DNA from: Reclinomonas americana ATCC 50394 | Lineage: Eukaryota | Reading direction: 5' to 3' | NCBI GenBank assembly: GCA_048213135.1 | Contig: PS015572.1 | Span: 55,945 to 89,939 of the forward strand | Length of the DNA stretch: 33,995 nucleotides | Shown: positions 1 through 33,995 of the stretch, piece after piece | How the letters are laid out: each line of letters begins with the position of its first letter | Position numbering within the stretch: position 1 is the first letter of the stretch | The notes under the pieces: generated by a model | The model's database searches: none | The model's input: the letters and a program-made list of their open reading frames with translations, nothing else | Told to the model about the DNA's origin: nothing | Program-made: the position numbers and the translations under genes

Positions 1-3000
1 ACAACAGGGCCATCATTGCCGGCCACCAACGGGCACTCGGCGGTGATGCTGGGGGGAGTCGGAGGGATGGCCAGTTTGACATCGCTCACTCTCTCGCCAA
101 GTGCGCCCAACGGAGGTGGCGCTGGCGCCGGAGGCAAGCTGGCTGTGATTCCCGACGCCCGACAGCCACTGATGCACCGCGGGCAAGACGTGTGCGCACA
201 GGTGAGTGCGGAGGGTGTCGTGTGTGGGGTCGCCATCACACACGCACAGACGCAGATGCACGCACACACGCGCACTGACAGCGACAGACACGCGCTCGTC
301 GCCGCGCACACACGCACACACACATGCGCATGCATACACGACAGCAGAGACGACTGTGACACACACGCATGCCCAATATGGCCAGTTGCATGCACTTTGA
401 TCACACGCTCTCTCTTTCTCTCTCTCACTCACTTTCTCTCTCTCACTCTCTCTGCACACGTGCACAGGTGGAGTTCCGCAGTCGTCAGGTGGCGTGGATC
501 GTGGCGTGTGTGGAGCGCTACCACGAAGAGAGTCGCACGTACCGAGTTCGCGACAAATTCCCGTCGGGAAAAAAGTCAAAGCAGTGGGATGTGCCGGAGG
601 ATGACGTGCTCATCTTTCCGCCTCTGGAGGCGCAGGTGGCCACGCTGGAACCCGGCAGTCGGGTTTGTTCGAAATTGTCTTGTTTTGGTCGATATATGGT
701 TGTGGACTGACATCGCATGCATGCATGCATGCATGCACAGGTGCTTGCTCTGTGGCCCAATGACGATGCGCAGACCGAGTGGACCTCTCAGTTTTACGAG
801 GCGACAGTGGTGGCCATTGGGGTGCGTGGGGGGCTGCGATGGAGTGCCAGTTTCCGATTGTTTGACTTGTCTTCTCGTTGCAGGAGCCACTGGAGCCGGG
901 CATGGTGTGTGTGCGCTTCAGGCAAACCACCGACTATATCGACATTCCAGTCAACAAACTCGTTCCTGTTGCGTGCCTCTGAGTAGCGCCCCTTGGGTTA
1001 CTCTCGACTCAAGTGTGTACCGTTGCAGGCACCCGAGTCCGTTGTCAATGCGTCCCGAGTCGACATTGCCGACCCGCTGCAAATGACGGGTGTGTCGGGC
1101 GGTCAGCTGCTCTCGGAGGGCGACTCGTTGCACACGCCGGAGCTGTTGTTGCCGTACATCGGCGTGACCTGGCAGAATCTAATGGACAGCGAGGCGCTGT
1201 TCTACGAGGTCAGTCCGTGGTAGCCGCGGAAGGGAGTGTCGCAGTTTGTCGCGCGCTGACGAGTGTTTGTTGCGCGCGACAGGTGTATCACGCGGTGCTG
1301 GCGGTGCAAGGCATCCCCATCAGTCAGGCAGTGCCTGTGGTTGGCATGCGAAACATCAATGCGTTTGTGTTCTTCCGAGAGGTCAACAAGCGCGGTGGCA
1401 TGCGCAAGGTGTGCCACGCAAGAGTCTCCGTTTCTCTGTTATGGCCTCTGCTTCTCACCACCGCGATCGGGTGGGGTGGACAGGTCATTGAGAACTCACT
1501 GTGGCCCGACATTCACTGGATGTTGAGACTGCCGAGAACGGCCACATCGTCCTCGTTTGCCCTTCGTCGGCACTACCAGAAGCTCTTGTTCCCGGTGGAG
1601 GAGCGCTACCGATGGAAGCGTGAGATCGCCGCTGTCGTGCTGCGGCGCAATCGTGGTGGACCCAAGGCTCGCAAAGAGTGCGTGTGCGTTTGCATCCCGA
1701 GAGTGTGTTCGCCAGCTGACGATTGCGTGTGCACACAACACAGTAGCACTGGAGACGACGGCGGATCGTGGGCCGGGGCAGAGGGCAGCGGACCGTCGCA
1801 GTCACCGTTACCATCGCAGCAGTCGTCGCAGACGTCAAGTGTGCGACGCGCAGCAGCGGCGGCCAGTGGCTCCATGGGGACGCCCGCGGAGGAACTCGAC
1901 GAGGAGGTGGAGCGCATCGTGGCCACCAAGTCGCTTGGTGGTGAGCGGTACTACTTGGTGAAATGGTGAGGCCATCAGTCTCGGTGTGGTTGCTGGTGTG
2001 TTACTGACGTGCTGTGCGCAGGGTCGGCATCACGGAAACATCGTGGGAGCTGTCGGCCTCGCTGCACCTCAACTGCCCGCACCTAATTGTTGAATTTTGG
2101 GAGGCCAAGGACGACGAGGTACTGTTGCTCTTGTGCGTGACCCTGCGTGTATGCGTGTGTCAACATACTGAGAATCGTGGCGACACAATGCGCAGCGTCG
2201 AATGCGCAAGCATCGCGCTCGTCATCGCGACGATGCCGTGGCGTCGGACGAGGAGGGCGAAGAGGTCACAGTTGCGCGGATCTCTCTTCCTGTGTGTGTG
2301 CACACAGGCCAACACTATCATGCCCCGCAGCAGCAGCACGCGCATCAGGTGAATTTCACGCCACCTCCACCACGTCGCACCACCTCTGGCGGCGTCCTCG
2401 ATGCTCGTCGCCGCACTCGGAACCGCACCGTGTTGGATGGTGTGTGCTCCGCAGTGACACTTGTGTGTGCGCACGGTTGCTCACCTTAATGACTGACAGA
2501 TTCGCGGAGAACTCGCCGGAGACCAGCAGGCGATTCGGTGCGTGTGACACTTGTTAGGGGAAAGCCAGTGTGTGTGCATCGATCTGTCTGACTCCCGCCT
2601 CTACAGGCACTGGACGACACGGACGACGAATCGATCATGGCCACCACGACAATGTCGATGGCGCCGTCGGGACCGGTCGGTCCGCGACCGTTTGTGTTTG
2701 ACGCAGCGCGTGTGAAGCAGTTCCGGGATGGTCTCTTCCAAGATGAATTCCAGTCGGATGATGAAATGGTCAGTGGTGGTGGTGCCGTGCTGCTGCACGA
2801 TCATGCGTGTCTGGTTTTCACACATCTTCTCTCCTCTCTGTTGTCAGGACTCGAGCTCAACGCCAGTGGAGCAGAGGATACGACAGGCGGCCATGCGCAT
2901 GCCATGGCCACCGGTCGATCGCGAGAGGGATTCACTGTTGGCCGGCCTGTGCGAGCAGCGACCACTAGTGCGCTCCAGCTCTGTGGCACTGGCACATCAG

Positions 3001-4864
3001 GGCGCGTGTGCCGCTCTGGCACTGTCGCCGGATGGTGCGCTGCTGGCGACTGCGGACTCGTTCGGAACCGTGCATGTGTATGCCGTCGGTGATGCCGGCG
3101 ACTTTTCGTTGCTGGTCGAGTACCGCGATAACGAGGTGCGGAGAAGTAGAGGAGGAATGAGTTGCTCTCTCCATGTCTTGTCACTCACTGTGGTCGGAAA
3201 ACAACAGGAGACGGAGATTGAGGAGTTCTGGACCGTGGCATTCACTCCCGACGGCTCCAAGGTCTACGCCGCCGGTCGTCGCAAGTCGCGGTTAGAATGG
3301 GACTTTGACGAAGAAGACAATCATGTTATTGCGTCTCACATCAAGGTGGGTCAAGACACATCGAGCTGCTCCTCTTCATTTTCCTGACCATGCGTCTCAG
3401 ATGTTTGACCTGGCGACCGGAGTGGTGAACACGTTGCAATTGCACAAGGAGGAGGTGTGGCGACTGTTGGTGGCCAACTTCAAGAGCCGCTGGCATCTGC
3501 TGTCGTGCTCTGCCGACGGGACGATCGTCAAGTGGCGACTGAGTCGCGACTGTGCGCTGGTGCGCGGTCGGGTGGTTTTCGACGACGACACGACGAGTGT
3601 GGTGTCGGATATGGCGCTGGTGCCGGATTGCGGCAACAAGTACCTGCTGGCCGCGTGCGACGATCGCTTCAAGATGTTTGATCTGGAGGAGGAGCGAGTT
3701 GCGTGTCAATGCACCGGTATCGCATCAGCGAGAGCGCGTGTATTGATTGACCCGGGATGTAAAATGTGTGCAGGTGATTCAGATCTTTGACGCGCCAGTG
3801 TACGGCAGCTCGGCCGATTTCGTGCAGTTTGTGTTCCCCACCGACATGAAGCTGGGCGACGGTGAATTTGCCGTTGTCACTCGTGGCGTGCCGGCGCTGG
3901 ATTCGGCGTGCAACCGTTGCGTTTCATCCTGTTTCTCGCATCAAGCGCGCGCTGTGTTGTGCTGAGAAGTTTATCTTTTTTCGCGCGACAGCTCGTGGTC
4001 CATCACAACTGCACCTCAGTGTGCTTCGCTTCCCACCGCACATGGGCCACGCTTTCTCGCTCATCCCAGTGCGCGTGTTTGAGCACGATCAGTTGAGTGT
4101 TTTTCTTGTTTCCTCGGACTCGCACGCTGCTTCTTTTTTTCCTGAAACAGTGTCGTGCAACAGATACGAATCGCTGCTGTCTCCGGTGAGACCGGCGGTC
4201 ACCAGCATGTACATTTTTGCGCCTGCAACAGCCGGGCGTGTATTTGTATGGCGCATCCTCGATGGGCGACTTTTGGGAGTAATTGACGTGAATGAGGATG
4301 AGGAAGACGTGCGAGTGGTTTTGGTGCATCCGAAGCGCGAGATGCTGTTGTGTGGAGGGGAAGGTGAGAGCGAGAAGGAGGAGAGAAATTTGCAATGGAC
4401 TTTCTCTCATGTCTGTTGCAGGCCCGTACACTTTTGCCTTGGAGCCGCAGGCTGTTGATGGCAGCTCAAGTGGCGAGGCCGTCGCCATGGACGATGATGT
4501 GACTGTGTTGCGCGCCACTCGCGCGACACAGCGTCCTGCACCTTCACAAATGCCGCCGCCACCGACGCTGCCAGTGATGACTTCCAGTGTAGGAGCAGCT
4601 GCAGCCGCCGCCGCCGCAGCAGCATCGATGGCACCTCCCCCACTACCTGCTGTCGCAGAAATGTCGATGGACAGTTTTGCGCTGCCGCCACTGCCGCACG
4701 AGGTTGGCGGTGATCGCAGTCTGCTGTCGGCGATGGAGTGGGATTCCTCGCCATCATTGCCGACGCCGACGACAACAACCACAACAACAACGACGACGTA
4801 CACTTTTGGCCTGGACGGTGGAGAATGTGTGCAATCGCCCGAGCCACCACCACCACTGCCGTAG
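1..4864 (+). CDS. Multidomain chromatin protein: SGF29-like tandem Tudor + ARID + chromodomain + WD40 repeats + Pro/Thr-rich tail (5'-partial, ~18-19 introns)
   Basis: Spliced frame gives a Tudor-like segment (LEPGSRVLALWP...TSQFYEATVV), an ARID segment (INAFVFFREVNKRGGMRKVIENSLWPDIHWMLRLPRTATSSSFALRRHYQKLLFPVE), a chromodomain (EVERIVATKSLGGERYYLVKWVGITETSWE...NCPHLIVEFWE) and WD40 repeats (HQGACAALALSPDG, HKEEVWRL...LLSCSADGTIVKW). GT-AG introns include 202-467, 663-740, 822-883, 968-1028, 1209-1282, 1409-1483, 1678-1743, 1966-2021, 2119-2195, 2440-2499, 2538-2606, 2769-2847, 3136-3207, 3346-3400, 3698-3773, 3916-3991, 4092-4163, 4364-4421. Stop TAG at 4862-4864. The junction around 2265-2307 is unresolved. 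Confidence 0.72.
715..736. repeat. Self-complementary (GCAT)n tract at the 3' end of an intron
   Basis: gcatgcatgcatgcatgcatgc lies immediately before the ACAG acceptor at 740. Confidence 0.9.
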
Positions 4865-4929
4865 GTATGATACATTGATTAGACAATAGGAGAAAAATAA
4901 CCACGACATGTACCTGTATGCTATATTAT

Positions 4930-7361
4930 TTACACGGCAGCCACTGCACGGCGAATCATCTCGTGGAATGCGACGCCTTCTCGAGCCGCCACGGCAGCGA
5001 GAGCCTCGCAAAAGTCCTCAAACTCGAGCTCCGCACCAGCCGTCGCTCGAGTCTGTGCAATGAACAGCAGATCCACATCGGCCTGGGTCATGGAGGCCAG
5101 TCGGCACTTGCCCAGCCAGCGAGTGAAGCGCGAGCGCGAGAGGCGACCGAGGCTGCGGATGCCGCAACCGCGCAAGAAGGCCTCAATCAGATCGTCTGCA
5201 GCCACGCACACCCCAACGTGAGTGGACGAATGGACTTGCGTGTGTTAACTACAGCCTGCATGCATGCAAAACGCACCGTCGGTGAGCTCGCACTGCAATT
5301 GTGGCTGCTGTGCGTCGTCGCCAGCAACGGGCAGTACACGCACGTAGCCACATGCCATGGCATCTTCGTGCTGGCGCCTGGCTGCCTTTTGCTCGTCCAC
5401 TGTCAGTCCGGCCATCTGCGTACAGTGTGAGAAACAGCGCGCTTCACGATATCGATGAACCACGTGCGTCAACACCGACCTTCTTGGGATGCATGCAGTC
5501 CACGTTGCACATGAGGAGCGCCTCGGCCAGCACCCACTGCTTAACGTACACGTCGAGAGGTGTGTCGGCAAAGAGACTGGGGCAGTGGTTGACCTCCATG
5601 AGGTGCGGTCGCAGGTGTTCGTCAAGCAGCACATCGAAGCCCATGACATGGAAGCAGTGCGCCCCACCGCTGGTGTCGTTGGGCAACGCCGCACGGTAGC
5701 GAATCAACAGCGTCGGTCGGAGTGCCAGCAGGGTGAAGCGCACGAGATCCTGCGTGTCGAGTTGGTGTGGCGCAGAGGCAAAGCGAAGAGAGCAACACCA
5801 AACTCACCTCGATACGCTGCCACATGGCCTCCGTGTCGTGTCCGCCGTCGGCCAGCAGCTGCAGCAGGTGTGTCAGATTGTCTGGACGTGCCTGCGTGCT
5901 CTGCACTCACGAAACGCATATACCTTTTCGACAGAGCTCACGGAGCTGCAGGGGTGAAAGGAGGGGGTCAATAACAGACCAGGCGCAGGGCGATGCATAT
6001 TCCTCTCCACCGTAGAAGGCCACCACTCACCGCTTGTGTCCCTGATCGTGGTGCTCCAGGTCCACATTTCCCTGGAAGCCGCCCTCATTGAACTTGTTGA
6101 GTGAGTAGTTGGTGAGGTGCATGAAGGCGAGGCGCAGATTGTCGGCCTGCGGTGCTGTGTACGGCTGTGTGATGGCGGTGAGAATTGTGAAAAGTAGGCG
6201 TGGACGCACGATTCGCATCTCACCTGTGTGGCCAGTCGCCCGAGTCCCTCGTGGTGCACAAATGCCGACAACGGCTCCAGTGAGGTGACCAGCACGTACA
6301 GGCGCATGTCGAACTTGAGGCCGTCGATGAGCAGCGGATTGGCGATGTACTCTTGCACGATGCCGCGATGGCGACTCTCGGGGATGTTACGGACGCGCTG
6401 AAACAGGTGGATGCCTGTGGCGATGGAAGAGATGAGCCGCGGTGCCGAAAGGAAGACGGAGAACACCTTGCGTGTGTGCGCACGTACCATCGCCCTGGCA
6501 GCCCTCGTCGGGCTTGAAGAGATACGTTGTCGCCGGCTCATCCGCACCTCGACGAGCGGCAGCCGCCTCACTGCGACCGACGCTCTCGCGAATGCGATCG
6601 AGTTCGTCGGGGTAGACCCAGGAGCGCGGCCAGAAGGCCATCTCATCGGGGAATCGCTCAGCAAAGCGATTCATGATGCGCGCAAACGGGGCCTTGTGCA
6701 AACACTGCCGCGATCCGGGAAACTGATTCAGCTTGCGCACGCGATGCTCGTCGCCCTCCTCCGCCAACAGCTTGCCACAATCTTGCATGCGCGTATACTT
6801 GTTAGGAACACTTGCGCAACAAGAGTCGTGTATCCGCACGCCCAACTCACCGGCGACAGCCACACCGCGATTGATAAACACGACATCGGCCTCGTGACGA
6901 TTGCGCTGACTCGCCACTCGCCAGCCCATTCGCAGTGCGCACCTGTCGATGCCATCAGTCACAGCGATGACACACCTGGAGAGAGGGAGGAAAGCGATCG
7001 CAACTTGGGCACGGAATCCATCACACAGTCGACGGCATCGAGCATGGGCGGGCGTCGCTTTCGTCGACGCAGCGTGGCCTCGTGGCGTTGCAGCAGCGCC
7101 AAGTGTCGACGATACACGGGGCGCTGAGTCACATCATCGCCCGCAGCAGCTGCAGCGATGGAGATGAGAGAGAGAGAGTGAGTGGCGATCGATGAAAGAC
7201 AACTTGAAAATGCTATTTATATAACGACTGTCGGCAATGGCGATCTCCTCGTCTGCGTCGACGCTGTCTCCGTGCTCATCGTCATCGTCGTCATCGTCAA
7301 CCACAGGGAGAGGGTGACGAGGGTGGGTGAGGGTGGGGGCGGCGGTGGCAGCCGAGGCCAT
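4930..7361 (-). CDS. Tubulin polyglutamylase, TTLL family (TTLL11-like C-terminus), ~10 introns
   Basis: TTL motifs KPDEGCQGDGIHL, VQEYIANPLLIDGLKFDMRLYVLVTSLEPL, MHLTNYSLNK and CFHVMGFDVLLDEHLRPHLMEVNHCPS. The C-terminal LSRSRFTRWLGKCRL...ADVDLLFI...FCEALAAVA resembles the TTLL11 tail as I recall it. ATG at 7361 with an acidic N-terminus. Confidence 0.88.
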
Positions 7362-7454
7362 ATGACTTCTCTCTCTGAAAGCAATGAAAACGAGCGGACA
7401 GACAGCGCGTGAAGTCTAATCGATCCACGTCTTTTTACACAAACTCAAACTACC

Positions 7455-10400
7455 TTATGCTCTGATGGGCATCAACTTCGAGCCCAATGGCGATATTTGC
7501 ATCCTCCTCCTCTTCTGTTCTTCCTCCTCCTCGTGCATCTCCTGCACAAAGGTCCACACTTGACTCGGTGATCGGATGCCCGGACACACCTTGCGCAGGT
7601 AGAGAACCATCGGAATAGTGATGGCGCAGAGGGCGCCGAGAATGGCGTACGCGTAGGTGAAGTTGTTGTTCAGCGGTCCGTTCAGCAGGGCCACCAGGCC
7701 GACTTGCACGTAATTGACAATGGCGCACACGACATTGAAGCAGCCGACGGCGCGACCGAACTGCTTCGGCGGGTAGCTGCGGGGGTGGAGAGAAGACGTC
7801 AGAGGCGGTACACGCCGTAAGGAGTAGGGAGGGTGTTGTCACGCAACATCTCCGCAAACGTCACCGTCACGCCAGCCGAAAATTGCCCTCGCAGCAACAC
7901 AAAGAGCGCGACAGTCACCATCTGGTACGACAGGCTCGGCACCATGCTGGAGAGGCAGAGGATGATGCCGACCAGTGAGATCTCGATCATGGCCACGGCG
8001 AGGCCGAAACGTCGGAACACCCAGTCGACAAGCAGAGCAGTGATGGCCACCGACGGGTAGATGATGGAGAAGATGGTGATGTAGAATTGCGCCTCGTCGA
8101 TGGAGGAGGCGAGAGTCAGGAAGAACGAGTTCAGCGTGCCCATGTAGAAGATGGTCAGCAGCGAAATCACCGAGGCCCATATTGACAGCACCAGAAACTC
8201 CGCCGAAAACAGACTGGATCTGAACGATGGCTCAGTTGAGATTTCCGCCGCAGTGATGGTGGTGGTGGTTGTGGTAGTGGTGTTATTGTTGTTGATATCA
8301 TCATTGCTGGGTTTGCGATCAGCCTCCTGCGCCTGGTGTAACACCGGAGTTGAGTGACGCATTGACTCAACATGAATACCACGCGCACAACGCAACTCGA
8401 GTCTGCGACGCCTGCCGATGCTTGAGACTCCACGAGGTGAGCGACGACAGCGATGAACCCGCCTGCAGCGTCTCCGACATGTGCTTCTTGAGATCCGGCA
8501 GCGATTTGATACGCATCGTGGCCGAGCTGCCGGAGCGACCCAACTCCCCCGTACTGCCGCCGCCAACGTGGCCCGACGATCCCACCTGCCGGGCACTGCT
8601 GCCTACGGCAAGCCTCTCGCTAGTCACCGGCTCTTCTCCCTCCTCCTCCACCTCCTCCTCGACCTCCACCTCCTCCTCGTGCACCTCTGGAATGTCGTCA
8701 AAATGCATCGGTCGCCGTTGCTCCGGGCTCTGCTGCTCTGGGCTCCGCTGCTCCGGGCTTCGCTGCTCCGGGCTTCGCTGCTCCGGGCTTCGCTGCTCCG
8801 GGCTTCGCTGCTCCGGGCTCTGCTCGATCGCCTGCAACAGGACGACATTGTCGCCTTGCCGCTCACTGCCGGCGCTCTCCTCGCGCGCCACAGTCGCCAT
8901 CTCCACATCCGTGGATGCCTTTTCCGGTGGCGGCGGCTGCGATCTGGAGCTCGACAGCGCCTCACGGTTCATGACATACGCCACATCCAGGAGCACCTAT
9001 CAATCGCCAGTCAGTGAGCGCCTCACTCCACCACTCACTCACTCTCTCAATCAACTCACCAGCAACACCACAGNNNNNNNNNNNNNNNNNNNNNNNNNNN
9101 NNNNNNNNNNNNNNNNNNNNNNNNNNNNNNNNNNNNNNNNNNNNNNNNNNNNNNNNNNNNNNNNNNNNNNNNNNNNNNNNNNNNNNNNNNNNNNNNNNNN
9201 NNNNNNNNNNNNNNNNNNNNNNNNNNNNNNNNNNNNNNNNNNNNNNNNNNNNNNNNNNNNNNNNNNNNNNNNNNNNNNNNNNNNNNNNNNNNNNNNNNNN
9301 NNNNNNNNNNNNNNNNNNNNNNNNNNNNNNNNNNNNNNNNNNNNNNNNNNNNNNNNNNNNNNNNNNNNNNNNNNNNNNNNNNNNNNNNNNNNNNNNNNNN
9401 NNNNNNNNNNNNNNNNNNNNNNNNNNNNNNNNNNNNNNNNNNNNNNNNNNNNNNNNNNNNNNNNNNNNNNNNNNNNNNNNNTGAACACCGCATACGCCCA
9501 CATGAGTTGGCTCAGCGTCAATCCAAACTGACTCGCCGCAAAGCGCAGGCCCATGCCACACACAAACGCCACCTCCCAGAACGAGCATCCCATTGCGATA
9601 ATCGTGCTCTCCCGCCCCGGAAACAGTCGCGCCACCACCAATCCCGCATAACCAATCCCGTTGCCGCCGGTTCCGAGCAGACACGCCCCGACCATGACAC
9701 ACACCGGATTGAATGGATTCACCGCCAGCAGCACCACTCCGCCCAGACACACCACTCCAAACAAGGCGCTGGTCAGACGCGCTCCGTAGCGATCCAAGAG
9801 AGATCCAATCAGCACAGTCGCCAGCATGCGCACCGAGTTGGCCACCGTGTAGGCATTCGAGTAGAACGGGAGATCCAAGCTGTCAACAATGGTGGTGAGT
9901 GAGAGACACGAATGAGTGAGCAATGAGCGCGCGCGCGAAACTCGTCCTTCTCGACTTGGAGAATGGCGACAAGCAGTGGCCATGTGAACAGCAGTCCGCA
10001 CACAAAGAAAATGGCCATCATGACTGTGCGAGTGAGTGAGCGAGTGAGACNNNNNNNNNNNNNNNNNNNNNNNNNNNNNNNNNNNNNNNNNNNNNNNNNN
10101 NNNNNNNNNNNNNNNNNNNNNNNNNNNNNNNNNNNNNNNNNNNNNNNNNNNNNNNNNNNNNNNNNNNNNNNNNNNNNNNNNNNNNNNNNNNNNNNNNNNN
10201 NNNNNNNNNNNNNNNNNNNNNNNNNNNNNNNNNNNNNNNNNNNNNNNNNNNNNNNNNNNNNNNNNNNNNNNNNNNNNNNNNNNNNNNNNNNNNNNNNNNN
10301 NNNNNNNNNNNNNNNNNNNNNNNNNNNNNNNNNNNNNNNNNNNNNNNNNNNNNNNNNNNNNNNNNNNNNNNNNNNNNNNNNNNNNNNNNNNNNNNNNNNN

Positions 10401-17808: not shown

Positions 17809-18639
17809 TTACCTGTCGGGCTTGCTCTGCCCAACTGCCTCGGCCATGCGGTCCACTGACGCAACCTCACGAATGTGCTGCACCACGGTGTGACAGTGTG
17901 GTCGCAGACGATCGGCCTCGAACGTGTGCGCCACACCCACGGTCATGCAGCCGGCCGCCATGGCGCCCTGGAATGGGGAGCAAGGGAGAGGGAGAGGGAG
18001 ACGGAGAGGGGGAGAGGGAGGGAGAGGGAGAGGGAGAGGGAGAGGGAGAGGGAGAGGGAGGGAGGTAGGGAGGGAGAAGAGATAAAGGGTGATGAGCGAT
18101 TGGCGTCACGAGAATCCCCACTGAGAAGCCTCGCAACTTTGCATCCGGCCACCGCATCCTCCACAACCACCACGCTGGCCGGCTCCACCCGCAACAGCTC
18201 ACACGCACGCAGAAAGATGTCCGGATGCGGCTTGCCGCGCTCCACATCGTAGCCCGACACCACGGGCCTGCCCTCGAAAAACGACGCCAGTCCACTCTCC
18301 CTCAGATTGAACGCAATCTTTCGATGATCGCCACTGGAGGCCACCGCAAACGGCATCTCCCGCTCCCCGCACTCCTCCAGCAGCTCCCGCACACCGTCAA
18401 ACGCACTCAGTTGTCCGCAGACACTCTCGAAATACACCGTCTCCTTCTCCGCGCCCATCTCCTGCAAGATCGCCAGCGAAGGTTCCTCGACGCCATGCTG
18501 AGATTGCAGAGTGAGTGAGAGCGACATGCAGGCAACACGAGCGAGCGATCGACACACCGTGGAGCACAAGTGTCGCGCAGCATCGACACTGCTCAACCCG
18601 ATGATACCGTGGAAATCGAAACCAATGTCGACACCGAAG
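17809..18639 (-). CDS. HAD-superfamily phosphatase (beta-PGM/CbbY-like), 5' end lost in the gap
   Basis: Motifs II-IV: FAVASSG, VERGKPHPDIFLRACELL and VVVVEDAVAGCKGAMAAGC. The 3' end is uncertain because an extra GTTGCGT intron near 17867 is possible. Confidence 0.85.
17984..18075 (+). repeat. Intronic (GGGAGA)n polypurine tract
   Basis: About 90 nt of near-pure purine hexamer repeat inside HAD intron 17968-18137. Confidence 0.9.
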
Positions 18640-19943: not shown

Positions 19944-22489
<2,546 letters not shown>

Positions 22490-22645
22490 AATCTCCACCC
22501 TGTCCCTTTTTTCCTGCTCCCGCGCGTGTTTCTGTGTTAGTTTTTGTGTGTCTATTATACCCTTCTGGCCCCTTCACTCTTGACTGCCTAATACACAAGA
22601 GAGAACGACGTATCGACTGTCATGCAGGACCACAATCACACAAAA

Positions 22646-23699: not shown

Positions 23700-23749
23700 A
23701 TAAACACAAACAGGTACAGCTGTACACTACTGCTACTTGCGGAGGTCGG

Positions 23750-25031: not shown

Positions 25032-28000
25032 ATGTCGTCGCTGCTGCATGTGCTCGAGTCCGAGCTGAAGCACGTCAGCAGCGAGTCGCGACGCAAGCTG
25101 CCCAATGTCAAAGAGGTGCGCGTGTGAACGAACATGAACGAGCCATTTCCTCTCTCTCACTCACGCTCACTCGCTCGCTCTCACAGGCCGCTGATCGTGC
25201 ACTGGTGGAGGTCAAGCGACTGGCCGACAGTCTGCACGGACAGCCGCTGGATGCGATCGTGCAAGGTGTGTGTGTGTCTCTGAGTCTCTGTGTTCATTGT
25301 GAGTGTGACTGATGAAGGTCTTGGCAGCAATCCGCGATACCTCGGATGTGTACTCGCCGCTCATCCTCGCCACGCTCTCCAACAACACCAAGCTGGTGCA
25401 GTCGGCGCTCGGGTGCCTGCAGAAGGTCCTGTCGCACGGCGGCGTGGCCAAGGTTTGAGTGCTCACACTCCACTCATCACGCACACGTGTGTGTGTGTGT
25501 CGCTGACTCTCTCTCCATCTTGTAGCGCGACCTGCCGGAGGTGCTGGAGGCTGTCATGCACCAGAGCGACTGTGGAGAGGAGATTGTGCAGCTCAAGGTC
25601 ATTCAGACGCTGCTGACGGTGATGACATCGCCGTCGTATCACTTGCCGGATGCGCTCTTGTCGGGGGTTGCGTCGTTGCTGCGTGCGAGGAAAGCGCACG
25701 GGCCTTGTGTTGCTGATGCCTTTTATTGCGTTTGTGTGCAGTGCTTGCGAGTGTGCTTCCTGTTGCATCGCAATCGCAGTCCGATGATTCACCACACGGC
25801 GGCGGCGACGGTGCGACAGGTGGTCAACCTGTTGTACGATCGCCTGGAGCAGTCGATGAACACGGACATTGCGTCGTCGCCAGACCCAGCTGCAGCGGAA
25901 AAGCTGCTGGAGGATCGTCGTCGCACCGGGTACTTGTTCTTCCAGGATCTGCTGAGTCTGGTCGACGGCAAGAGTGGCGACTGGCTGAGCATGCGACCGG
26001 GAGTGCTGAATCTGCGCTTTGGTATCGAGCTGTTGGAGTTGGTGTTGTCGCATCCGGTTGCTTTGAAGGTCAGTGTGAGCGCGCGTTGTGTGCGATCGGG
26101 CAGTCGGCGGAGTCGACTCACGTGGGGGAGTGCAGGAGGAACCGTTCTTGCCGACCATCGCGTACCGCCTGAGTCCGTTCCTGCTCTCGTCGATTCGCAG
26201 TCAGATGAGCGACTTTGGCAATCTGGTGCGCCTCATTCGTGTCGGCGTCGTGCTGATGACGCACTACACGCAGTACATTGTTGCGTGGCGTGCATCACGC
26301 GTGTCATTATTTGTTGCTTGTGTTGTTGTCTCACTCGCCGCTGCGTGCGCAGCCGGAGCAAACGCGCGACTTTTTCGACTTTCTCACGAAAATGGCCAAC
26401 GGCGACTACGAGCGCAGCGTGCTGGTGTGGCCGTGCGTGCTGGCAGTGGACGCACTGCGTTGCATGTTGAAGATTCCGCGCATGGCCGAGTTTCTGTTCG
26501 AGACATTCGACATGGGGCGGGCGAATCGGCCGTCGGCGGTGTTTGGCTGCCTGGCCAACGCCATTGGTAGCTTTGTGAAGCGCATCTACGAGTCGCAACC
26601 GGGACCGATCACCATTAGCTTGCAGACGAAGCGATTTGGCGGGTGAGTCGAGCGCTTGAACACTGTCGTGTAACGGCGACTCACGCGCTGCACACTGTAG
26701 ATTGGAATTGCTGAATGACACGGATATCATGGCGCCGGGAGTTTTGGTGAATGCCGAGAGCGCACTGTTCCTGGGTCTGGAGGCGGTCTCGCTGGTGGTG
26801 GAGTCGTATTCTCGCACTTGTGGATTGCTGGAGACGTTGGATAATCCGACGAGTGGCAGCACGCCGTCGTCGCCGACTCTGGCTCGCACCGAGCCACCGG
26901 GAACACCGTCGGGCTCCATGGTGAGATTACGCAGTGGGTGGTGTTGGTGGGAGGACGAAACTGACTTTTTGGATGGTCTCATCAGTCGCAACTGTTGGCT
27001 CGTTCCCTTTCGACGCTCGCTGCCGACATGGTGCCGTTGCGCACCGATGCTGTGGCAGCCGAGGTGAGTGCTGTGATTTGCATGACTGCTCGTGGCAAGG
27101 GCATGTGCTGATCTGTACCTTGCTACAGCCTGCGTCTGGCTCTGGTGCTTCAGGCTCGGGTGTGTCGGCTCGTCCAGACGACGCCGTTGCGTCTGTTGTG
27201 CCACTCTCGCTCTATCATCAAGCACCACAGTCTCTGATCCTCATTTGTTCGCTTTTCAGTCACAGACAGTGGCTTCTGCGCCGCCTGGCAGTGGAAACGA
27301 GGACTCCAGCTTGTCGGAGCCACCGACGGGTGTGGAGTCGGTGTGTTGGCTTTCCTTGTTATTCTCAGGTTTTGTTGTTGCCTTTCTCTCATCCTCCCGT
27401 GCGTGCAGTCGGCTGCCGACGACACGGAGGAAGCAGACAGTGATCCTGTCTCTCTGCTGATCCGGCGCTGTGTGGAGGAGGCCGTGCGGCGTGGTATCTC
27501 CATGGCCATTTCGTCGACTGGCCCCATGCAGCCGTCGTCTCGCGGTGCAGACGCTACGGACAGTGAGGGTCACGATGCGCTGACGGAGGACCAGGATATG
27601 GCCGACGGCGATGCGGGTGCTGGCATTGAAGATGTGGAGCAGGACAGTGATGAGGATCAGCGCGGCTCACCCGTGCCCGACGAGGCTGCCGCTGTGGAGA
27701 CGGAACAGGTATGATTTTCCTCCGTCTCACTCTCCCTCTTTGTAACCAGCGCTGATTCGCGTCGAGACGCAGGACGTGTCTACGCCGTCACGCCCCGCTG
27801 CACCCAAGGTTGACGCGCCGTCGCCACTGCAGCTGACGCCGTCGGCAGCCACCGACGAGGGCGGTCGCAGCCAGTCCGACCTTGCAGGATCGTCGTCGTC
27901 GTGGGAGACGCCGTCGAATCTCGGCAAGGGACCGGAGTTGCTGCGGATTCACTCAAAGACCAAGGACGAGGACATTTCGGTGAGCGCTGGCTGATTCTGG

Positions 28001-31000
28001 ATGTGAGGCAGGAGATGGGTTGTGGTGGTCTCATGGCCTTGCGCGCACGCAGCTGTGCAAGAAAATGGTGGAGTCGAGCTGGTGGTCGCTGCTCGCAGCC
28101 ATTGGCAGTCTGCTGGAACGCACACGCAACGAGGAGATTTTGTCGTCGGTGCTCCGCCTGTACCACGTGTTCATTCACGTGTGTGGAGTGACGGGTCTGA
28201 CGCAACCTCGTGATGCGTTGCTCACGTCGCTGTGCCGGTGCGTCGTGCAGGAGAGCGAGTGCTGTCGAGTGCAGTTGTCTGACTTGAGTGTGCGCGCAAC
28301 AGCTTCACGCTGCCAGTGTCGGAGGATCCGCGTCCGGAGGATGATGCCGCGGTGGGCACGGAGAAGGGAGTGATGACCCCGAAGAATGTGCAAGTGATGA
28401 AGGTATGATGTCTTTTCCTTGTACGCCTTTGCTAGCTTTGTCTGACAGCTGTGACGTGTCGGTGACAGGCACTCTTCAAAGTGGCCATCAAACTCGGCTC
28501 GCTCCTCGGCAGCTCGTGGTACCTGCTGTTGAAAAACTTGCAGCAACTCGACACGCTGCTGTATCCGGTGATGCCGAGTCAGCAGGCGGTGAAGGGCGCC
28601 AACGAGGGTACCACGCAGGAGCTGTCGGTACGTGTGTCTCTCGCTGGCGAGTAGGATATCATCTCTCGCGGTTATCTCATCGTCGTCGTGCATGCAGATT
28701 TTGAGCGACTCGCTTGCCACACTCTTCTCCAAGAGTGTGGACCTCGACGAGGAGGCACTCGTGCACTTGTTGCTGGCACTGACGCAATTGTCGGCCGACA
28801 CACTCACCTCGCCTTCGTTCAAGCTCATGTCGTCGACGGTACGTTTGTGTGTGCGTGCAACCTGATTCGCACGCTGTCTGTGATCTCCTCATGTGATCAC
28901 CGCAGGCACCTCGCATGTTTGGCACGAGCAAACTGGTGGAGACCGCCAAGTACAATGTGCACCGCATCGGCAACATCTGGGAGTTCACAACACAGCACCT
29001 GGTGTCTGTGGCACGACACGATGTTTCGTGATTGTTGTTGTTGTTATTGATTGTGTGCCTCCTTGGTCGCTCACTGCGAACAGAATGCCGCTGTGCGCGC
29101 CTTCGCCGTGGAGAGTATGGGAGCCATTGTGCGCGCCACGCTTGCCGACCCCAACAATGCGCACATGGAGGAGGTTGGTGTTGTGGGCGTCGGTTCTGTG
29201 GGCCGCTTGTGCGAGCACCATCTGAGCGTGTTCGTGTGTGAGCAGAAGGCATTGATTCCGTTCCAGCGGCTGTTTGAGAATGTCGAGTTCCCGGATCTGC
29301 ACGAGAATCTGCTGACGCAACTGAGCAGCATCATTCGCAGTGTTGGGCCGGTGCGTTTGGGGAGGGCAGATGACTGTGATGTGGCTTTTCCTCAGCTCAC
29401 CCGGCTTTCGATTGTGCGCAGCAATTGACCACGAGCTGGGAAATCGTGCTGCAAGTGCTCTCACAAGTCGGCAAGGAAGGCCGCCGCAACGAGATTCTGA
29501 TTGGATGGGAGAGCATTCAGCTGATTGTGACCGACTATGCCAACAAGTTCCCCACTGTTTGTGCGTCGGCTGGTGAGATGTATCGTATTGATCATGAAAC
29601 TCACCCACTGTTCGTTTCTCGTGCAGCCAATCTGCTGATGCTGATCAAGGTCGTTGGGAGTTTCTCGCACCAGCGCGAGGAAGTCAACATTGCGCTGTCC
29701 TCCATGAACTTTTTGTGGAACCTCTCGGATTTGCTTGCGTCGCGTGTCTCGTTGCGTCGTCAAAATGGGGTGTGGCTCCCACACAACATTCGCTGACAGA
29801 CCACGCAGGGCTGGCGCGCCGGAGATCCGCGCATTGTGGCAAGTGCTCTTTGCCGAGCTGCAAGTGAGTTCGTGGGACAACCGACCGGAGGTGCGTCACT
29901 GCGGCATTCGCACCGTGTTCTCCACGGTGGTGCGCCATGGCGCCGGATTCAGCGAGGAGCTGTGGACCGAGTGCTTGTTGGCCGTTGCGTCGACGATTCG
30001 CGTTCCTGGTGACGCGCTGCTGCTCACCCTTCTCTTTCCCGCACAGATTCTCATCCCTCTTGTCAAGCAAGTGGAGATGTTTGCCGATAGTGCGTCGGAG
30101 GAGGAAGAGCCGGAGGATGGCAGTGGTCAAATGTTGCGTTTGTAAAGAGACTATATTGTACTCAGTTTCTCTTGTGCCTCACACTCTATGGATGCAGTAT
30201 GAAGCACTGGAGTCGCAACTCGGCGGCGAAGCAGTGGGATGAGACTCGCGCAGTGGCACTGGCTGGGGTCACGCACATGTACAAAATGCTTTATGTGCAT
30301 CTCAGGTACGTGTGCGAGGCGAGAGCGAACGGGTGAGTGTGTGGGTGAAGTAAGTTACTCATTTCATGTGCGCAGCAAATTGGAGTGTTTTGCGGAGAGC
30401 ATTCAGCTGCTCACCGAGCATGCAGCGAACGGTGTGTTGCATCCGGCCAAGGATGTGCACAGGGTTGCGTCGCTCGAGTGCAGCTTGGTTGTCGCAATCG
30501 ATTCTTGCCATTCATGTTGCATTTGTGTGCCAGATTGCCATTCGCGGTGTGCTCGACATGCTGCTCAGTGCCAATGAAGCCGAGGCTGGACAGCCGGCAT
30601 CGGAGTCGTTGATGGTGGTGTGGAAGTTGGTGTGGCACATCTGGGAGGCTTTGGCGGCGTACCTCTCGCTCACTCCGTGCAGTTGCGCAATCTCCCTGCT
30701 TTGCGTCGTCGCCCTCTGTTGACTCACGCCGCCTTGTCGGACGCAGGTGCGGGGAAGCCGCGAAGTGTGCTGGAGGCATTGACACCGATTGTGTCGGTGC
30801 AAAAGGCCTTGCAGCGCGGCACGAAGAACAACCCCGACCTTGTGAAATTCTTTATTAATGGTGTGAAGGAGGCGTACGAGCTGATGCGAGGCCGCTTTAC
30901 CAGTCCAGATTGTGTTCGGTGCGTGCTCGCGCGTGTAGGTGCATCATTTACAGTCCACGATCTGATATTGCTTCACACAGGTTGATATCCATTCTCAACA

Positions 31001-32311: not shown

Positions 32312-32409
32312 AATGGCAGCAGGCGTGAGAGAGGAATGAGAGATGGAGAAATGTAACAAGTGTGTCTCGCATTGGTTTACGTTGTCGTGCAGTGTGTTCT
32401 ATTGTGTGC

Positions 32410-33485
32410 TCAGTCTATCACGTTAACCACCGGCCGCCATTCGCTCTCCGGCGCCTCGTACAGGAAAAATCGGTAGAGCGCATCGAGTGCGGCCTCCTGT
32501 TCGCTTCTCGTTACGGTGGTGCCGGCACCCTGACCAAGGAACGTGTTCCCATTCTCGACGACCGACACGAACGGTGGCCCCTCGCTCAGCCTTCGGTACA
32601 CCGGTTTGGGGAGACCGAGACGCCAGCTCAGCAAGAACAGGTCGCGCTTCGGTTCGTGGACGGGCACAAAATCGCGCAGGTACAAGTGCTCCATGTCCTG
32701 TGCGACACACGAACAGCGTGAGGTCGACGAGGCACGGGAGGGAGTGAGAGACAGCGCATGCACAACTCCTCGCGGCGACTCGCGGTACCGCCTCATGGCG
32801 ACCGCATCGAGCTCGCTGGCATCCGGTCGCCTCCCCGCAATCAATCGCACCGGCATCAGCACGTGCGGCCACACCAGTCGCCTGAACGCCTCCTCGGGGC
32901 CCAGATCGCGACACGTCGCGGCCGCCAAACACTCAAACAGATTCGCCACCGTCTTGGACGCCGGTTCCATGCGCGATGCCGCCACACCGGCTCGTGGCTG
33001 CAACGATGTGAGCAACAAATAAGGGGGAGAACGCCGAGCTGTACGACGCGCACCTCCCAGTCTCGCGAACAGTAGCTGGTCAAGTCGTCGAGGCCAAGTA
33101 GTCGTCCTCGTGAGACAAGCCACACGTTACTGGTGAACTGACTGCGCACGTGGGAGGAGAAAGGTTGTCAGCTGTCGACTGAATGCAGAGCAATGTAGTG
33201 ATAAAGAGCACGAAACGATGTGAGACTGTGGATGGTGCCAGCTGGCATATTGGGAAACCGCTTGAAAAAGTGCTCAGTGATGGACATGGCGAGGAACTTG
33301 TCGCCTGTGCAATGCATGCAAGGAAAGAGTGAGATGTGCGTGCATTCTCTCTCTTCCGTTTCTTCTCTCACACACAAACCGAGAAACTCCAGACTTGAGT
33401 TCTTGGCGGCCTCGGCAGCTGCACGTGCAGTGCTCACAGGGAAGCCGAGACGACCGCTGACGACTGTGCGGAAGGCGCGCTGCAT
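32410..33485 (-). CDS. RNase III-domain + dsRBD protein, probable mitoribosomal protein mL44, 4 introns
   Basis: Presequence-like MQRAFRTVVSGRL, RNase III segments NSSLEFLGDKFLAMSITEHFFKRFPNMP and VANLFECLAAA, and a dsRBD EPKRDLFLLSWRLGLPKPVYR...GQGAGTT...EQEAALDALYRFFLYE resembling fungal mL44 C-termini as I recall them. Confidence 0.75.
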
Positions 33486-33586
33486 GTGAAGACGGGAGAA
33501 GGGAGGGGGACAGACGTGCTCGCTCTGTCCGCGACGTCTCGTCTGTCCTCTGTGTGTGTTTTGAATCGAGTTCACAGAGCGACGAC
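33486..33586. promoter_or_regulatory. Putative bidirectional promoter (mL44-like / unknown gene, 101 bp)
   Basis: Position between divergent inferred ATGs. Confidence 0.45.
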
Positions 33587-33995
33587 ATGGCGACTGCAGA
33601 GTACGATGAGGGCGAGGGCTTTGATGCCGAGGACGACCAGGTGAGCGCGCGAAAGGGGCGGGGAGAATGGAAAGAGAGAGAGGGAGAGGCGCGGCCATGT
33701 CCGATCCTTGTTGTGTGTGTGCGTGCGTGTGTCTCTCTCTCTCTTGCTGCATGCTGGCACTCCTGGTGGTACGCACAGAAAGGGACACACGCGCACAGAG
33801 CATGCAGTGTGTGTGCACTGATCGCATCGCACCTGTTTCTCCGACATGTCACACTCTCTCTCTCACACACTCTCTCACACAATGTAGGCCGAGGAGGAGC
33901 GTTTGGCGGCTGGCTTTGGCGCGATGACGACGGCGGAGCAGATTGCGTTCTTCCGCACGCGTCTTCCGCCCATGGAGCAACTGTACGTGCACGAG
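33587..33995 (+). CDS. Unknown protein, first two exons (3'-partial)
   Basis: ATG at 33587 gives MATAEYDEGEGFDAEDDQ. Intron CAG|GTGAGC...TGTAG spans 33641-33887, then AEEERLAAGFGAMTTAEQIAFFRTRLPPMEQLYVHE stays open to the window end. Confidence 0.7.
   Translation, partial: MATAEYDEGEGFDAEDDQVSARKGRGEWKEREGEARPCPILVVCVRACVSLSLAACWHSWWYAQKGTHAHRACSVCALIASHLFLRHVTLSLSHTLSHNVGRGGAFGGWLWRDDDGGADCVLPHASSAHGATVRAR

Follow-up and report, generated by a model that had tools for sequence, protein, structure and literature searches.

Two classes of splice donor, tied to the last exon base, in a scaffold segment of Reclinomonas americana

Why should the last base of an exon foretell the form of the splice donor that follows it? 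The question is raised by the window, the whole stretch of 33,995 nucleotides analysed here, a piece of eukaryotic scaffold with about 59% G+C and five N gaps in which Pfam profiles, run on six-frame open reading frames, recognised 11 genes. Its initial annotation had tallied 29 of 32 shifted donors, of the form /GTTGCGT (the slash marks the exon end), after A, C or T, and 77 of 82 ordinary donors, G/GTGCGT, after G.

Gene models and donor classes

Genes were modelled with a 3-periodic Markov coding score together with GT..AG introns and signals learned by EM, whose starting point specified GT alone. With a single donor matrix the procedure converged on 112 introns of median length 69 nt, and a two-component mixture divided their donors into nnG/GTGnGT (76%) and nnn/GTTGCGT (24%); since the mixture was unlabelled, the classes emerge without supervision. 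The final model (model F) holds 117 introns, about 6 per kb of coding sequence, all of them gene-model predictions from one window of 11 genes and several of them with weak support, while 29 introns, nine with GTT[G/T]CG donors, were confirmed to the codon by protein-family profiles. The donors are given below with their support, with the outcome of codon-shift homology scans, and with their recovery in two control runs, one exon-blind (donor model of positions +1 to +9 only) and one donor-agnostic (no donor model, any GT); "both runs" refers to these two.

968..974, + strand: shifted, T/GTTGCGT; intron 968-1028 (61 nt, phase 0), support 6.7, missed by both runs
2271..2277, + strand: shifted, A/GTTGCGC; intron 2271-2330, support 9.1, in the exon-blind run, missed by the donor-agnostic run
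3698..3704, + strand: shifted, A/GTTGCGT; intron 3698-3773, support 18.8, in both runs
3916..3922, + strand: shifted, C/GTTGCGT; intron 3916-3991, support 11.9, in both runs
4507..4513, + strand: shifted, T/GTTGCGC; intron 4507-4674 (168 nt), less sure, lying in low-complexity coding sequence
6998..7004, - strand: shifted, A/GTTGCGA; intron 7004-6943, TTL gene, support 17.1, in both runs
7841..7847, - strand: shifted, T/GTTGCGT; intron 7847-7777, MFS gene, support 20.5, in both runs
8390..8396, - strand: shifted, A/GTTGCGT; intron 8396-8327, support 15.1, in both runs
9935..9941, - strand: shifted variant, A/GTTTCGC; intron 9941-9880, support 19.2, in both runs
11360..11366, + strand: shifted variant, A/GTTTCGT; intron 11360-11446, final model
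11702..11708, + strand: shifted with -1 G, G/GTTGCGT; intron 11702-11760, BTB gene, the Pfam BTB profile continuing across the junction (upstream exon ends at profile position 75, downstream residue 2 lies at 77)
12168..12174, + strand: shifted, T/GTTGCGT; intron 12168-12226, final model
12413..12419, + strand: shifted, T/GTTGCGT; intron 12413-12475, support 17.6
14177..14183, - strand: shifted, C/GTTGCGT; intron 14183-14101, 4-aminobutyrate aminotransferase gene, scan peaks at donor and acceptor
16045..16051, + strand: shifted, C/GTTGCGT; intron 16045-16114, DnaJ gene, support 5.2, in the donor-agnostic run
18131..18137, - strand: shifted, A/GTTGCGA; intron 18137-17968 (170 nt), less sure
21616..21622, + strand: shifted, T/GTTGCGT; intron 21616-21681, glutamate dehydrogenase gene, scan broad and best one codon further on (472.1 vs 469.7 bits at the model); the other in-frame GT from -8 to +8 codons, at -8 (458.1 bits) and +6 (467.7), are both lower
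22175..22181, + strand: shifted, A/GTTGCGT; intron 22175-22242, homology peak at the model, dropping 9.3 bits at -1 codon and 6.1 at +1
22363..22369, + strand: shifted, T/GTTGCGC; intron 22363-22438, homology peak at the model
25667..25673, + strand: shifted with -1 G, G/GTTGCGT; intron 25667-25741, Mon2-like gene, Mon2 scan best at the model for donor and acceptor
26280..26286, + strand: shifted, T/GTTGCGT; intron 26280-26352, Mon2 scan best at the model
27186..27192, + strand: shifted, C/GTTGCGT; intron 27186-27265, final model, Mon2 scan flat
29023..29029, + strand: shifted variant, T/GTTTCGT; intron 29023-29083, Mon2 scan best at the model
29751..29757, + strand: shifted, C/GTTGCGT; intron 29751-29808, support 4.1, Mon2 scan flat, best at +3 codons by 3.9 bits
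29984..29990, + strand: shifted, C/GTTGCGT; intron 29984-30046, Mon2 scan best at the model
30133..30139, + strand: shifted, T/GTTGCGT; intron 30133-30197, support 19.8, Mon2 prefers +1 codon by 4.7 bits, with no GT there
30464..30470, + strand: shifted with -1 G, G/GTTGCGT; intron 30464-30533, Mon2 scan best at the model
30682..30688, + strand: shifted, A/GTTGCGC; intron 30682-30746, final model, Mon2 scan flat
33210..33216, - strand: shifted variant, C/GTTTCGT; intron 33216-33142, RNase III gene, support 13.1
1678..1684, + strand: ordinary without -1 G, A/GTGCGTG; intron 1678-1743, in both runs
21833..21839, + strand: ordinary without -1 G, A/GTGCGTG; intron 21833-21898, scan peak at the model; the unspliced frame has a 22-residue insert exactly there against the glutamate dehydrogenase profile
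14320..14326, - strand: ordinary example, G/GTGAGTG; intron 14326-14256, homology peak at the model
28238..28244, + strand: ordinary example, G/GTGCGTC; intron 28238-28302, Mon2 scan best at the model, dropping 10.7 and 8.0 bits

Across the 117 introns of the final model, 68 of the 70 donors that carry G at +5 are preceded by a G at -1, 1678 and 21833 being the two that are not, as against only 6 of 37 with G at +6 and not at +5 (Fisher p=1.3e-18) and 5 of the remaining 10. The strict form GTT[G/T]CG accounts for 29 donors, with T10, A9, C7 and G3 at -1, the three G being those of 11702, 25667 and 30464; depending on whether the strict or the looser definition is used, the class takes 29 to 37 of the 117 introns, between about a quarter and a third. 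The earlier tallies become 26/29 and 68/70, and the five exceptions named with them were all recovered (21832 is 21833 in the final model). In the homology-confirmed subset the contrast is smaller, 16/17 against 4/10 (p=0.004). The tie between donor class and last exon base is confirmed as a real observation.

Donor choice and the one-base shift of the profile

The donor mixture of the final model includes the -1 base and could reinforce itself, and this, together with the weakly supported introns, might suggest that the association arose from donor picking, from base composition or from a repeat family. Such an origin is hardly credible and is already largely refuted. The association is kept in the exon-blind run (-1 G in 54/73 vs 4/27, p=1.2e-7) as well as in the donor-agnostic run (49/59 vs 5/35, p=3.9e-11), which still picks 25 of the 29 strict shifted donors, and so the biased donor choice that the annotation had itself raised as a threat does not account for it. 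Non-donor GT sites trend the other way, with -1 G at 13% (G+5) vs 28% (G+6) on the sense strand and 19% vs 29% on the antisense strand. Furthermore, the bare 7-mers are unevenly spread over the two strands, independently of any gene model: the gene-sense and antisense strands hold 22 vs 3 for GTTGCGT, 17 vs 2 for [ACT]GTTGCGT, 13 vs 1 for GGTGCGT and 24 vs 16 for [ACT]GTGCGT. The 29 homology-confirmed introns also speak against an artefact, and the introns have only simple repeats in common, which argues against a repeat family. The association is robust and does not stem from donor choice.

We compared the profiles of 67 G+5 and 34 G+6 donors and observed that the second matches the first once displaced by one base, and does so throughout, from the third base ahead of the motif to the eighth past it, exon included. 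In the G+6 class real +3 is T in 32/34 (place +2), real +4 is G in 28/34 (place +3), G at real +6 is followed by T at real +7 in 26/34 (places +5 and +6), and real +8 is G-rich as is ordinary +7. On the exon side -1 (A12 C7 G5 T10) resembles -2 of the G+5 class (A25 C18 G10 T14), and -3 matches -4 of that class better than its -3; judged by likelihood, the exon bases fit the shift better, by 98.7 bits when -1 is counted and by 5.4 bits when only -2 and -3 are. Shifted donors have G at -1 at the frequency (15%) that the shift predicts, with no extra avoidance. Both classes therefore align as the single motif G-[G/T]-T-G-C-G-T that had been proposed, and intron G+1 occupies the place of exon G-1 with the cut still at GT, as the annotation had also held; for nine GTT[G/T]CG donors in the predicted introns, the homology scans confirm to the codon that the cut would fall before GT. 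This position-by-position shift, exon included, suggests that in the second class recognition register and cut site seem offset. Median intron lengths (67 and 69.5 nt, p=0.39), the CAG acceptor (61/67 G+5 and 33/34 G+6 introns) and branch-like CTRAY motifs are alike in the two classes, suggesting that one machinery serves both. The data thus show two donor classes with a one-base profile shift, a cut at GT and common 3' signals and length.

Pairing with U1 and readings of the GTTGCGT motif

Nearest-neighbour duplex energies were computed with the standard U1 5' end (AUACUUACCUG). For the G+6 donors the mean was -0.63 kcal/mol when paired in register 0, -0.59 when moved to +1 and -0.88 when +3 was bulged; decoys averaged -1.35 and ordinary donors -7.46. 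No stable duplex was thus found for the shifted donors in these three arrangements, and 15 of 34 of them had no duplex below 0 in any register. The better U1 pairing in the +1 register that the annotation had expected is therefore not borne out with the standard U1; that register takes a clear lead only when U1 is given a hypothetical G at position 5. If standard U1 paired in the +1 register, GUUGAGU or GUUAAGU would be the expected forms; C is seen instead, at 30/34 with A at 1/34, and the near-invariant C of GTTGCGT is unexplained by standard U1. Nor did the shifted class prove to be a slid copy of all ordinary donors, whose commonest forms are GTGCGT (14) and GTGAGT (12), with A and C used equally at +4 (24 and 24 of 67).

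The strict 7-mer might reflect full complementarity to an altered or separate reader, be it a U1 whose 5' end is altered so as to place G opposite the C (..ACGCA..), a second U1 variant or another GUUGCGU factor. Of the 16 base combinations at U1 positions 5 and 6, G5/C6 gave both classes their best energies (ordinary donors -9.41, shifted ones -5.85 in the +1 register, decoys -3.54), C is in excess over ordinary +4 (30/34 vs 24/67, p=5e-7), and A is rare at ordinary +3 (7/67, vs 17% inside introns). Co-evolved U1 5' ends are reported in Entamoeba and Mastigamoeba, and mixed variants in Physarum (Roy and Bowser 2022, bioRxiv 10.1101/2022.06.08.495308). However, A is the most enriched base at ordinary +4 (36% vs 17% background), which fits standard U1, and ordinary donors with A there and those with C are alike at the remaining positions. 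No snRNA gene was found within the window, and the same authors report a standard U1 kept in Mamiellales, with GYGCGY donors, and in Thecamonas, with +4 C, so a changed U1 is not the default expectation. We regard an altered reader as unlikely.

It is also conceivable that U1, and then U6, sit in the ordinary register at G+1/U+2, with one U of +2/+3 flipped out and pairing resumed at GCGU. The bulge energy with standard U1 is as good as that of the shift or slightly better (-0.88 vs -0.59), U6 and the catalytic centre must absorb an extra base between GU and GCGU anyway, and human sites with a +2/+3 bulge exist (54 to 68 predicted, Table 3 of Tan et al. 2016, PMC4856993). With the hypothetical G5/C6 U1 the bulge reaches -5.18 vs -5.85 for the +1 register. 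However, a bulge would leave exon -1 opposite U1 C9 and G would be expected there, yet it falls to 5/34, the same 15% as at ordinary -2; exon -2 and -3 are better fitted by the shifted profile; and a flipped-out base need not be T, yet T is found in 32/34. In GT[N]GCGT the sense/antisense counts are T 22/3, G 10/3, C 4/0 and A 0/1, and an extra base that is specifically T is more in keeping with pairing at place +2 than with a free bulge. A bulged U appears quite improbable.

Known systems and the proposed mechanism

A register shift of this kind has experimental precedent in human cells (Roca and Krainer 2009, via Tan et al. 2016, PMC4856993). In the human +1 register, as here, intron G+1 takes the place of exon G-1, the contacts lie one base further downstream and cleavage is still at GU, so that recognition and cut site are uncoupled. 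However, all validated non-canonical registers make up 1.5% of 201,541 human sites (PMC4856993), a rare exception against 29 to 37 of 117 introns here, and the class in the window is one stereotyped 7-mer, unlike the human shifted register, whose example is A-rich (GUCAAGUAU) and pairs with standard U1; here C replaces A and computed pairing is nil. The human +2/+3 bulge register (Roca et al. 2012, listed in Table 3 of Tan et al. 2016) likewise has an extra U after GU, but predicts a kept preference for exon G-1, which is lost in the window's class. The ordinary donors, with consensus G/GTGCGTG and a CTGAC-type branch motif, resemble the GYGCGY or AG/GTGCGT donors of Mamiellales (Irimia and Roy 2008, PMC2483917; Verhelst et al. 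2013, PMC3879977), whose U1 is reported as standard (Roy and Bowser 2022) and whose genomes are intron-poor outside special regions, unlike the window with its ~6 introns per kb coding; the available portions of both papers make no mention of a GTTGCGT class for Mamiellales. In Entamoeba a U1 5' end altered to suit an unusual donor provides a precedent (Roy and Bowser 2022, bioRxiv), but that genome is poor in introns and has only one donor class, its register unshifted, against two classes here.

We lean towards a reading in which one motif of about nine bases is read with GU in either of two placements, the cut being fixed at GU. In ordinary numbering the motif would run -1 G, +1 G/U, +2 U, +3 G, +4 C/A/U, +5 G, +6 U and +7 G, and its reader would most likely be the 5' end of U1 snRNA; this identity, like the way in which the C of GUUGCGU would be recognised, is inferred. 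An intron would have to start with GU, which could fill places +1 and +2, giving the ordinary G/GUGCGU, or places -1 and +1, giving /GUUGCGU, cut one base upstream of the motif's expected point, with cleavage presumably set later, at GU, by the catalytic spliceosome.

Several points weigh against this reading: four of ten G+6 donors have a -1 G in the homology-confirmed subset, standard U1 gives shifted donors no stable duplex, with C where A is expected, lineages with GYGCGY donors or +4 C reportedly retain the standard U1, and the data come from one window of 11 genes. The interpretation of the initial annotation is supported in part: an offset of register and cut seems likely, while U1 pairing, codon necessity and full sliding lack support or were put too strongly.

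With one motif and two placements of GU, class would be tied to the last exon base because ordinary donors need exon G-1 for place -1 while shifted donors use intron G+1, and the last exon base of shifted donors would be as free as -2 elsewhere. The further claim that shifted donors occur where the codon cannot supply G is too strong, since, of the 15 phase-0 shifted donors whose -1 is not G, only 5 follow a codon that lacks a G-ending synonym. The G+6 share depends on intron phase (34%, 15% and 62% for phases 0, 1 and 2, p=0.003) and is greatest when the second base of a codon stands at -1, in keeping with a release of the coding sequence from the -1 G constraint.

Gene map and intron models

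The window has ~59% G+C over its 33,995 bases, with five N runs. Its gene map is based on Pfam matches to six-frame ORFs of the window, as follows; a comparison of the window with Rfam families gave no match.

1-4865, + strand, SGF29-tudor/ARID/chromo/WD40 protein
4900-7350, - strand, tubulin-tyrosine-ligase family
7450-10050, - strand, MFS transporter
11040-13350, + strand, BTB/BACK protein
13500-15500, - strand, class-III aminotransferase
15720-17770, + strand, DnaJ protein
17800-18813, - strand, HAD hydrolase
19800-22490, + strand, glutamate dehydrogenase
23650-24800, - strand, signal peptide peptidase
25100-32310, + strand, Mon2-like protein
32400-33995, - strand, RNase III/dsRBD protein

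The stop codons of the first two, convergent genes lie ~65 bases apart (4862-4935; the + gene ends at 4864 and the - gene at ~4930), leaving a very short intergenic space. A 15-base tandem repeat in the MFS-like gene (8700-8830, - strand) encodes, in the modelled protein, successive SPEQR units (..RSPEQRSPEQRSPEQ..).

Introns were predicted from the sequence of this one 34-kb window alone, using a dynamic-programming gene finder whose coding score was a 3-periodic second-order Markov model seeded with Pfam-matched stretches. Introns ran from GT to AG over 40-450 nt and were scored for branch point and acceptor, and genes could be partial at segment ends. This strand-restricted version replaced finders relying on codon usage only, on both strands or on a single donor matrix, which over-predicted or drifted into GT repeats. 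Short simple repeats, (GT)n, (CT)n and (GCAT)n, abound in the introns (e.g. 711-735, 11893-11930 and 25266-25290), and GTGTGT runs tend to be mistaken for donors by a single donor matrix. One donor matrix, trained by EM from GT alone, yielded 112 introns (median length 69 nt), of which 77 had G at the last exon base (-1) and 75 had G at intron position +5. An unsupervised two-component mixture of these donors separated into nnG^GTGnGT (76%; the caret marks the cut) and nnn^GTTGCGT (24%). The final gene model, which combined the donor mixture with a learned length distribution, converged at 117 introns.

Donor class, last exon base and the one-base shift

The initial annotation had claimed that donor class is predicted almost perfectly by the last exon base, ordinary donors following G (77/82) and shifted donors following another base (29/32). 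The final model gave closely similar figures: -1 was G in 68/70 donors with G at +5 (exceptions 1678 and 21833) and in 6/37 donors with G at +6 and not +5 (Fisher p=1.3e-18), as well as in 5/10 of the remaining donors. The strict shifted form, GTT[G/T]CG, was present at 29 donors preceded by T (10), A (9), C (7) or G (3), the G cases being 11702, 25667 and 30464. Thus the exceptions named at the outset recurred, including 1678 and 21832 (21833 in our model).

Since the donor mixture of the final model sees position -1, we ran controls for donor choice. With the donor model limited to +1..+9, -1 G was found in 54/73 G+5 against 4/27 G+6 donors (p=1.2e-7), and without any donor model in 49/59 against 5/35 (p=3.9e-11); the donor-blind run recovered 88/117 donors of the final model and 25/29 strict shifted donors. 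The association therefore persists in donor-blind runs, and a bias in donor choice, which the initial annotation had named as one way in which its claim could fall, does not account for it. A composition artefact was also rejected, because GT sites that are not donors trend the other way, with -1 G at 13% (G+5) versus 28% (G+6) in sense and 19% versus 29% in antisense. Counted without any gene model, GTTGCGT was the most strand-asymmetric non-repeat 7-mer (22 gene-sense versus 3 antisense copies), and its asymmetry was independent of a preceding G (sense/antisense 5/1 with G, 17/2 without), whereas that of GTGCGT depended on it (13/1 with G, 24/16 without). The model leaves three sense copies of GTTGCGT unused as donors. 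The one at 19946 (+) precedes the first modelled exon of glutamate dehydrogenase, where a 5' intron may have been missed; that at 16166 (+) is within the modelled intron 16129-16192, and that at 17865 (-) is near the HAD gene's 3' end.

Profiles were compared for the 67 G+5 and 34 G+6 donors whose per-intron support score was at least 4. As the initial annotation had proposed, both classes align as a single motif, with intron G+1 filling the place of exon -1 in the G+6 class. The G+6 profile is the G+5 profile moved by one base, exon included.

Donor profiles of the two classes (place, position numbered by the ordinary register)
G+6 real +3, place +2: T 32/34; ordinary, T invariant
G+6 real +4, place +3: G 28 (of 34); ordinary, G 44/67
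G+6 real +6, place +5: G by class definition; ordinary, G by class definition
G+6 real +7, place +6: T 26 (of 34); ordinary, T 48/67
G+6 real +8, place +7: G 16, C 9, T 7, A 2; ordinary, G 34, T 17, C 11, A 5

On the exon side, -1 of the G+6 class (A12 C7 G5 T10) resembles -2 of the G+5 class (A25 C18 G10 T14), and -3 (G 12/34) resembles -4 of the G+5 class (G 24/66), not its -3 (G 10/67). The shifted profile improved the likelihood of the G+6 exon bases by 98.7 bits, of which -2 and -3 alone gave 5.4 bits. As -1 G occurs in the G+6 class at the level that the shift predicts, it is not specially avoided there.

In other respects the classes were alike, with median intron lengths of 67 and 69.5 nt, branch-like motifs and a CAG acceptor, which is nearly universal (94/101 introns of the two classes at support of at least 4). 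U12-type introns have the donor RTATCCTT and the branch site TCCTTAAC near the 3' end. A minor-spliceosome origin was rejected for the shifted class, whose donors are GTT[G/T]CG and whose 3' parts share the CTRAY-like motifs and CAG of ordinary introns. An introner-like repeat family was rejected as well: an all-against-all blastn of the 117 introns gave no similarity of intron length among the best 20 of 23 non-self rows, where matches were short (15 to 24 nt) and, as we read the intron sequences, consist of simple GT/CT repeats.

The share of G+6 donors varied with intron phase, being 34%, 15% and 62% in phases 0, 1 and 2 (20/59, 4/27 and 13/21; p=0.003), and it was highest in phase 2, in which -1 falls on the middle codon base, where G is scarcest. 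This dependence supports a relaxed exon -1 constraint on coding sequence. The initial annotation had further supposed that the shifted form is used when the codon cannot supply G, and this is not the rule: only 5/15 phase-0 shifted donors with non-G -1 follow a codon for which no synonym ends in G (GAC, GAT, AAT, ATT, GAT). The motifs of the two classes differ at a single internal base, but a change there would displace the cut and disrupt the reading frame. Loss of G-1 together with gain of one T after GT would be the more likely route to a class switch.

Position of the cut in conserved proteins

Profile HMMs were built from database homologs, and the spliced translation was scored as each donor or acceptor was moved by whole codons; the resolution of these scans is one codon, and the exact cut base was taken from the GT-AG rule together with the reading frame. 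The scans peaked at the GT for shifted donors 14183, 22175, 22363, 25667, 26280, 29023, 29984 and 30464, which agrees, to the codon, with the proposal that the cut stays at GU while the register of recognition lies one base further downstream. Cutting after the first base of the motif (G^TT..) was rejected, as it would break frames confirmed by the scans.

With the glutamate dehydrogenase profile (60 homologs) the model aligned end to end at 469.7 bits, and for 6/7 introns the best score fell precisely on the modelled donor and acceptor. Among these six are the shifted donors A^GTTGCGT (22175) and T^GTTGCGC (22363) as well as A^GTGCGT (21833), an ordinary donor that is exceptional in lacking -1 G. 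The scan of T^GTTGCGT at 21616 was broad, with its best position one codon further on (472.1 versus 469.7 bits at the model); among in-frame positions from -8 to +8 codons, the other GTs lie at -8 (458.1 bits) and +6 (467.7 bits), both below the model. Introns 21464-21526, 21616-21681 and 21833-21898 (+) of this gene are stop-free and of 63, 66 and 66 nt, multiples of three, so that one 270-codon ORF (21229-22038, +) reads straight through them; the 65 extra residues appear as inserts in the Pfam and profile alignments. The enzyme (19800-22490, +) is closest to bacterial-type proteins (~41% identity; Saprospiraceae, Belliella, Cyclobacteriaceae), no closer eukaryotic relative was found among 8000 candidates scored, and this bacterial-like gene carries at least 9 spliceosomal introns.

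All 8/8 introns tested with the aminotransferase profile (60 homologs) peaked at the model, including C^GTTGCGT (14183). Protein matches to this gene reach 79% identity, on one exon; no annotated protein of the organism itself was among the matches found for this gene or for glutamate dehydrogenase. Three of its donors (13630, 15105 and 13774, - strand) lack +5 G and read G^GTCCATT, G^GTGCATT and G^GTATCGT; the first two have no G at +6 either, and all three have -1 G and are homology-confirmed to the codon. The 1693-residue Mon2-like model aligned as one domain to a profile of 30 distant homologs (858.7 bits), and 14/32 introns peaked at the model at both ends, including 25667, 26280, 29023, 29984 and 30464. 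The other 18/32 gave flat scans in poorly conserved stretches, with donor-side score changes of at most 4.7 bits and an acceptor change of up to 7.2 bits at one of them, 27064-27128. For the BTB gene, the exon upstream of 11702 runs to position 75 of the Pfam BTB domain and residue 2 of the next exon falls at 77, a continuity that supports a junction at 11702. A search for longer proteins matching the BTB exon gave nothing, and no related loci were found in metagenome contigs with a Mon2 exon as query. A protein-atlas comparison yielded broad eukaryotic clusters only.

Within the homology-confirmed subset, -1 was G in 16/17 G+5 against 4/10 G+6 donors (p=0.004), a contrast below that of the full set, in part because all three strict exceptions fall in conserved regions.

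Candidate readers of the shifted donors

To our knowledge, the 5' end of U1 snRNA is the only known single reader spanning exon -1 to intron +7. It would read the donors of both classes, the shifted class one base downstream of the register set by the cut. We computed fixed-register duplexes (ViennaRNA) with the standard U1 5' end AUACUUACCUG, which may not be the U1 of this organism.

Mean duplex energies with the standard U1 5' end
Ordinary donors (67), register 0: -7.46 kcal/mol
G+6 donors (34), register 0: -0.63 kcal/mol
G+6 donors (34), register +1: -0.59 kcal/mol
G+6 donors (34), bulged +3: -0.88 kcal/mol
250 decoy GT sites, best of 0 and +1: -1.35 kcal/mol

G+6 donors, which lack G at +5, thus fit U1 poorly when paired in register 0, as shifted-register sites do (-0.63 versus -7.46), and against the organism's own donor consensus the one-base move restores their fit at every place but one. 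The initial annotation had made its U1 explanation depend on better pairing in the +1 register; with standard U1 the pairing is not better (-0.59 versus -0.63 kcal/mol), and if U1 is standard the explanation fails by that criterion. Donor by donor, the +1 register was lowest for 14/34 and register 0 for 5/34, four of these five with -1 G, while 15/34 formed no duplex below zero. The poor pairing is due to the C in GTTGCGT, where standard U1 would prefer A. C fills this place in 30/34 G+6 donors versus 24/67 at ordinary +4 (p=5e-7). Among ordinary donors GTGCGT (14) and GTGAGT (12) are similarly common, but GTTGAGT was seen only once.

The main known alternative to a moved register is a bulged U at +2/+3, which would keep exon -1 facing C9 of U1 and so favour G-1; G-1 is seen in 5/34, the level of ordinary -2 (10/67), and the extra base, which on a bulge need not be T, is nearly always T. 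A moved register has also been shown in human, at rare sites (Roca and Krainer 2009, as described in the accessible text of Tan et al. 2016, PMC4856993). As for its reader, a changed U1 5' end in this organism is a hypothetical answer to the misfit: among 16 variants of U1 positions 5/6, G5/C6 was best for both classes (ordinary -9.41, shifted -5.85 in register +1, decoys -3.54 kcal/mol), and only with such a U1 did moving the shifted donors by one base improve their pairing. Against such a change, ordinary +4 is enriched above all in A (36% versus 17% inside introns), and lineages whose donors are GYGCGY or carry +4 C are reported to have standard U1 in the accessible text of Roy and Bowser (2022, bioRxiv 10.1101/2022.06.08.495308), which also describes a co-evolved U1 for Entamoeba and, for Physarum, mixed variants. 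We consider it rather improbable that two readers operate, namely standard U1 for G^GURAGU-type donors and, beside it, a U1 variant or rewritten 5' end ..ACGCA[A/C]C.., fully complementary to G[G/U]UGCGU. If true, this second reader would let a quarter to a third of introns be recognised in a register one base away from the cut, a genome-wide, hard-wired non-canonical register with snRNA co-evolution and a relaxed exon -1 G constraint.

The principle of out-of-register recognition is already known; what is new is its scale, 29 to 37 of 117 introns, as well as the fixed motif GTTGCGT and its mismatch with standard U1. All validated non-canonical registers in human amount to 1.5% in the accessible text of Tan et al. 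(2016, PMC4856993), where the shifted register is a rare exception, whereas here it is apparently a standard second intron mark with one fixed 7-mer. A literature search of article texts found no description of GTTGCGT/GUUGCGU donors or of such a shifted-register class.

If the second class is genome-wide, gene prediction would be affected, as a single donor matrix mis-called several shifted introns in the window, and the finding would bear on what reads GCGU donors in GC-rich lineages with standard U1. It would also show exon G-1 to be unnecessary for splicing chemistry, and would offer a natural system that separates early recognition, with G at place -1, from catalysis, with GU at the cut.
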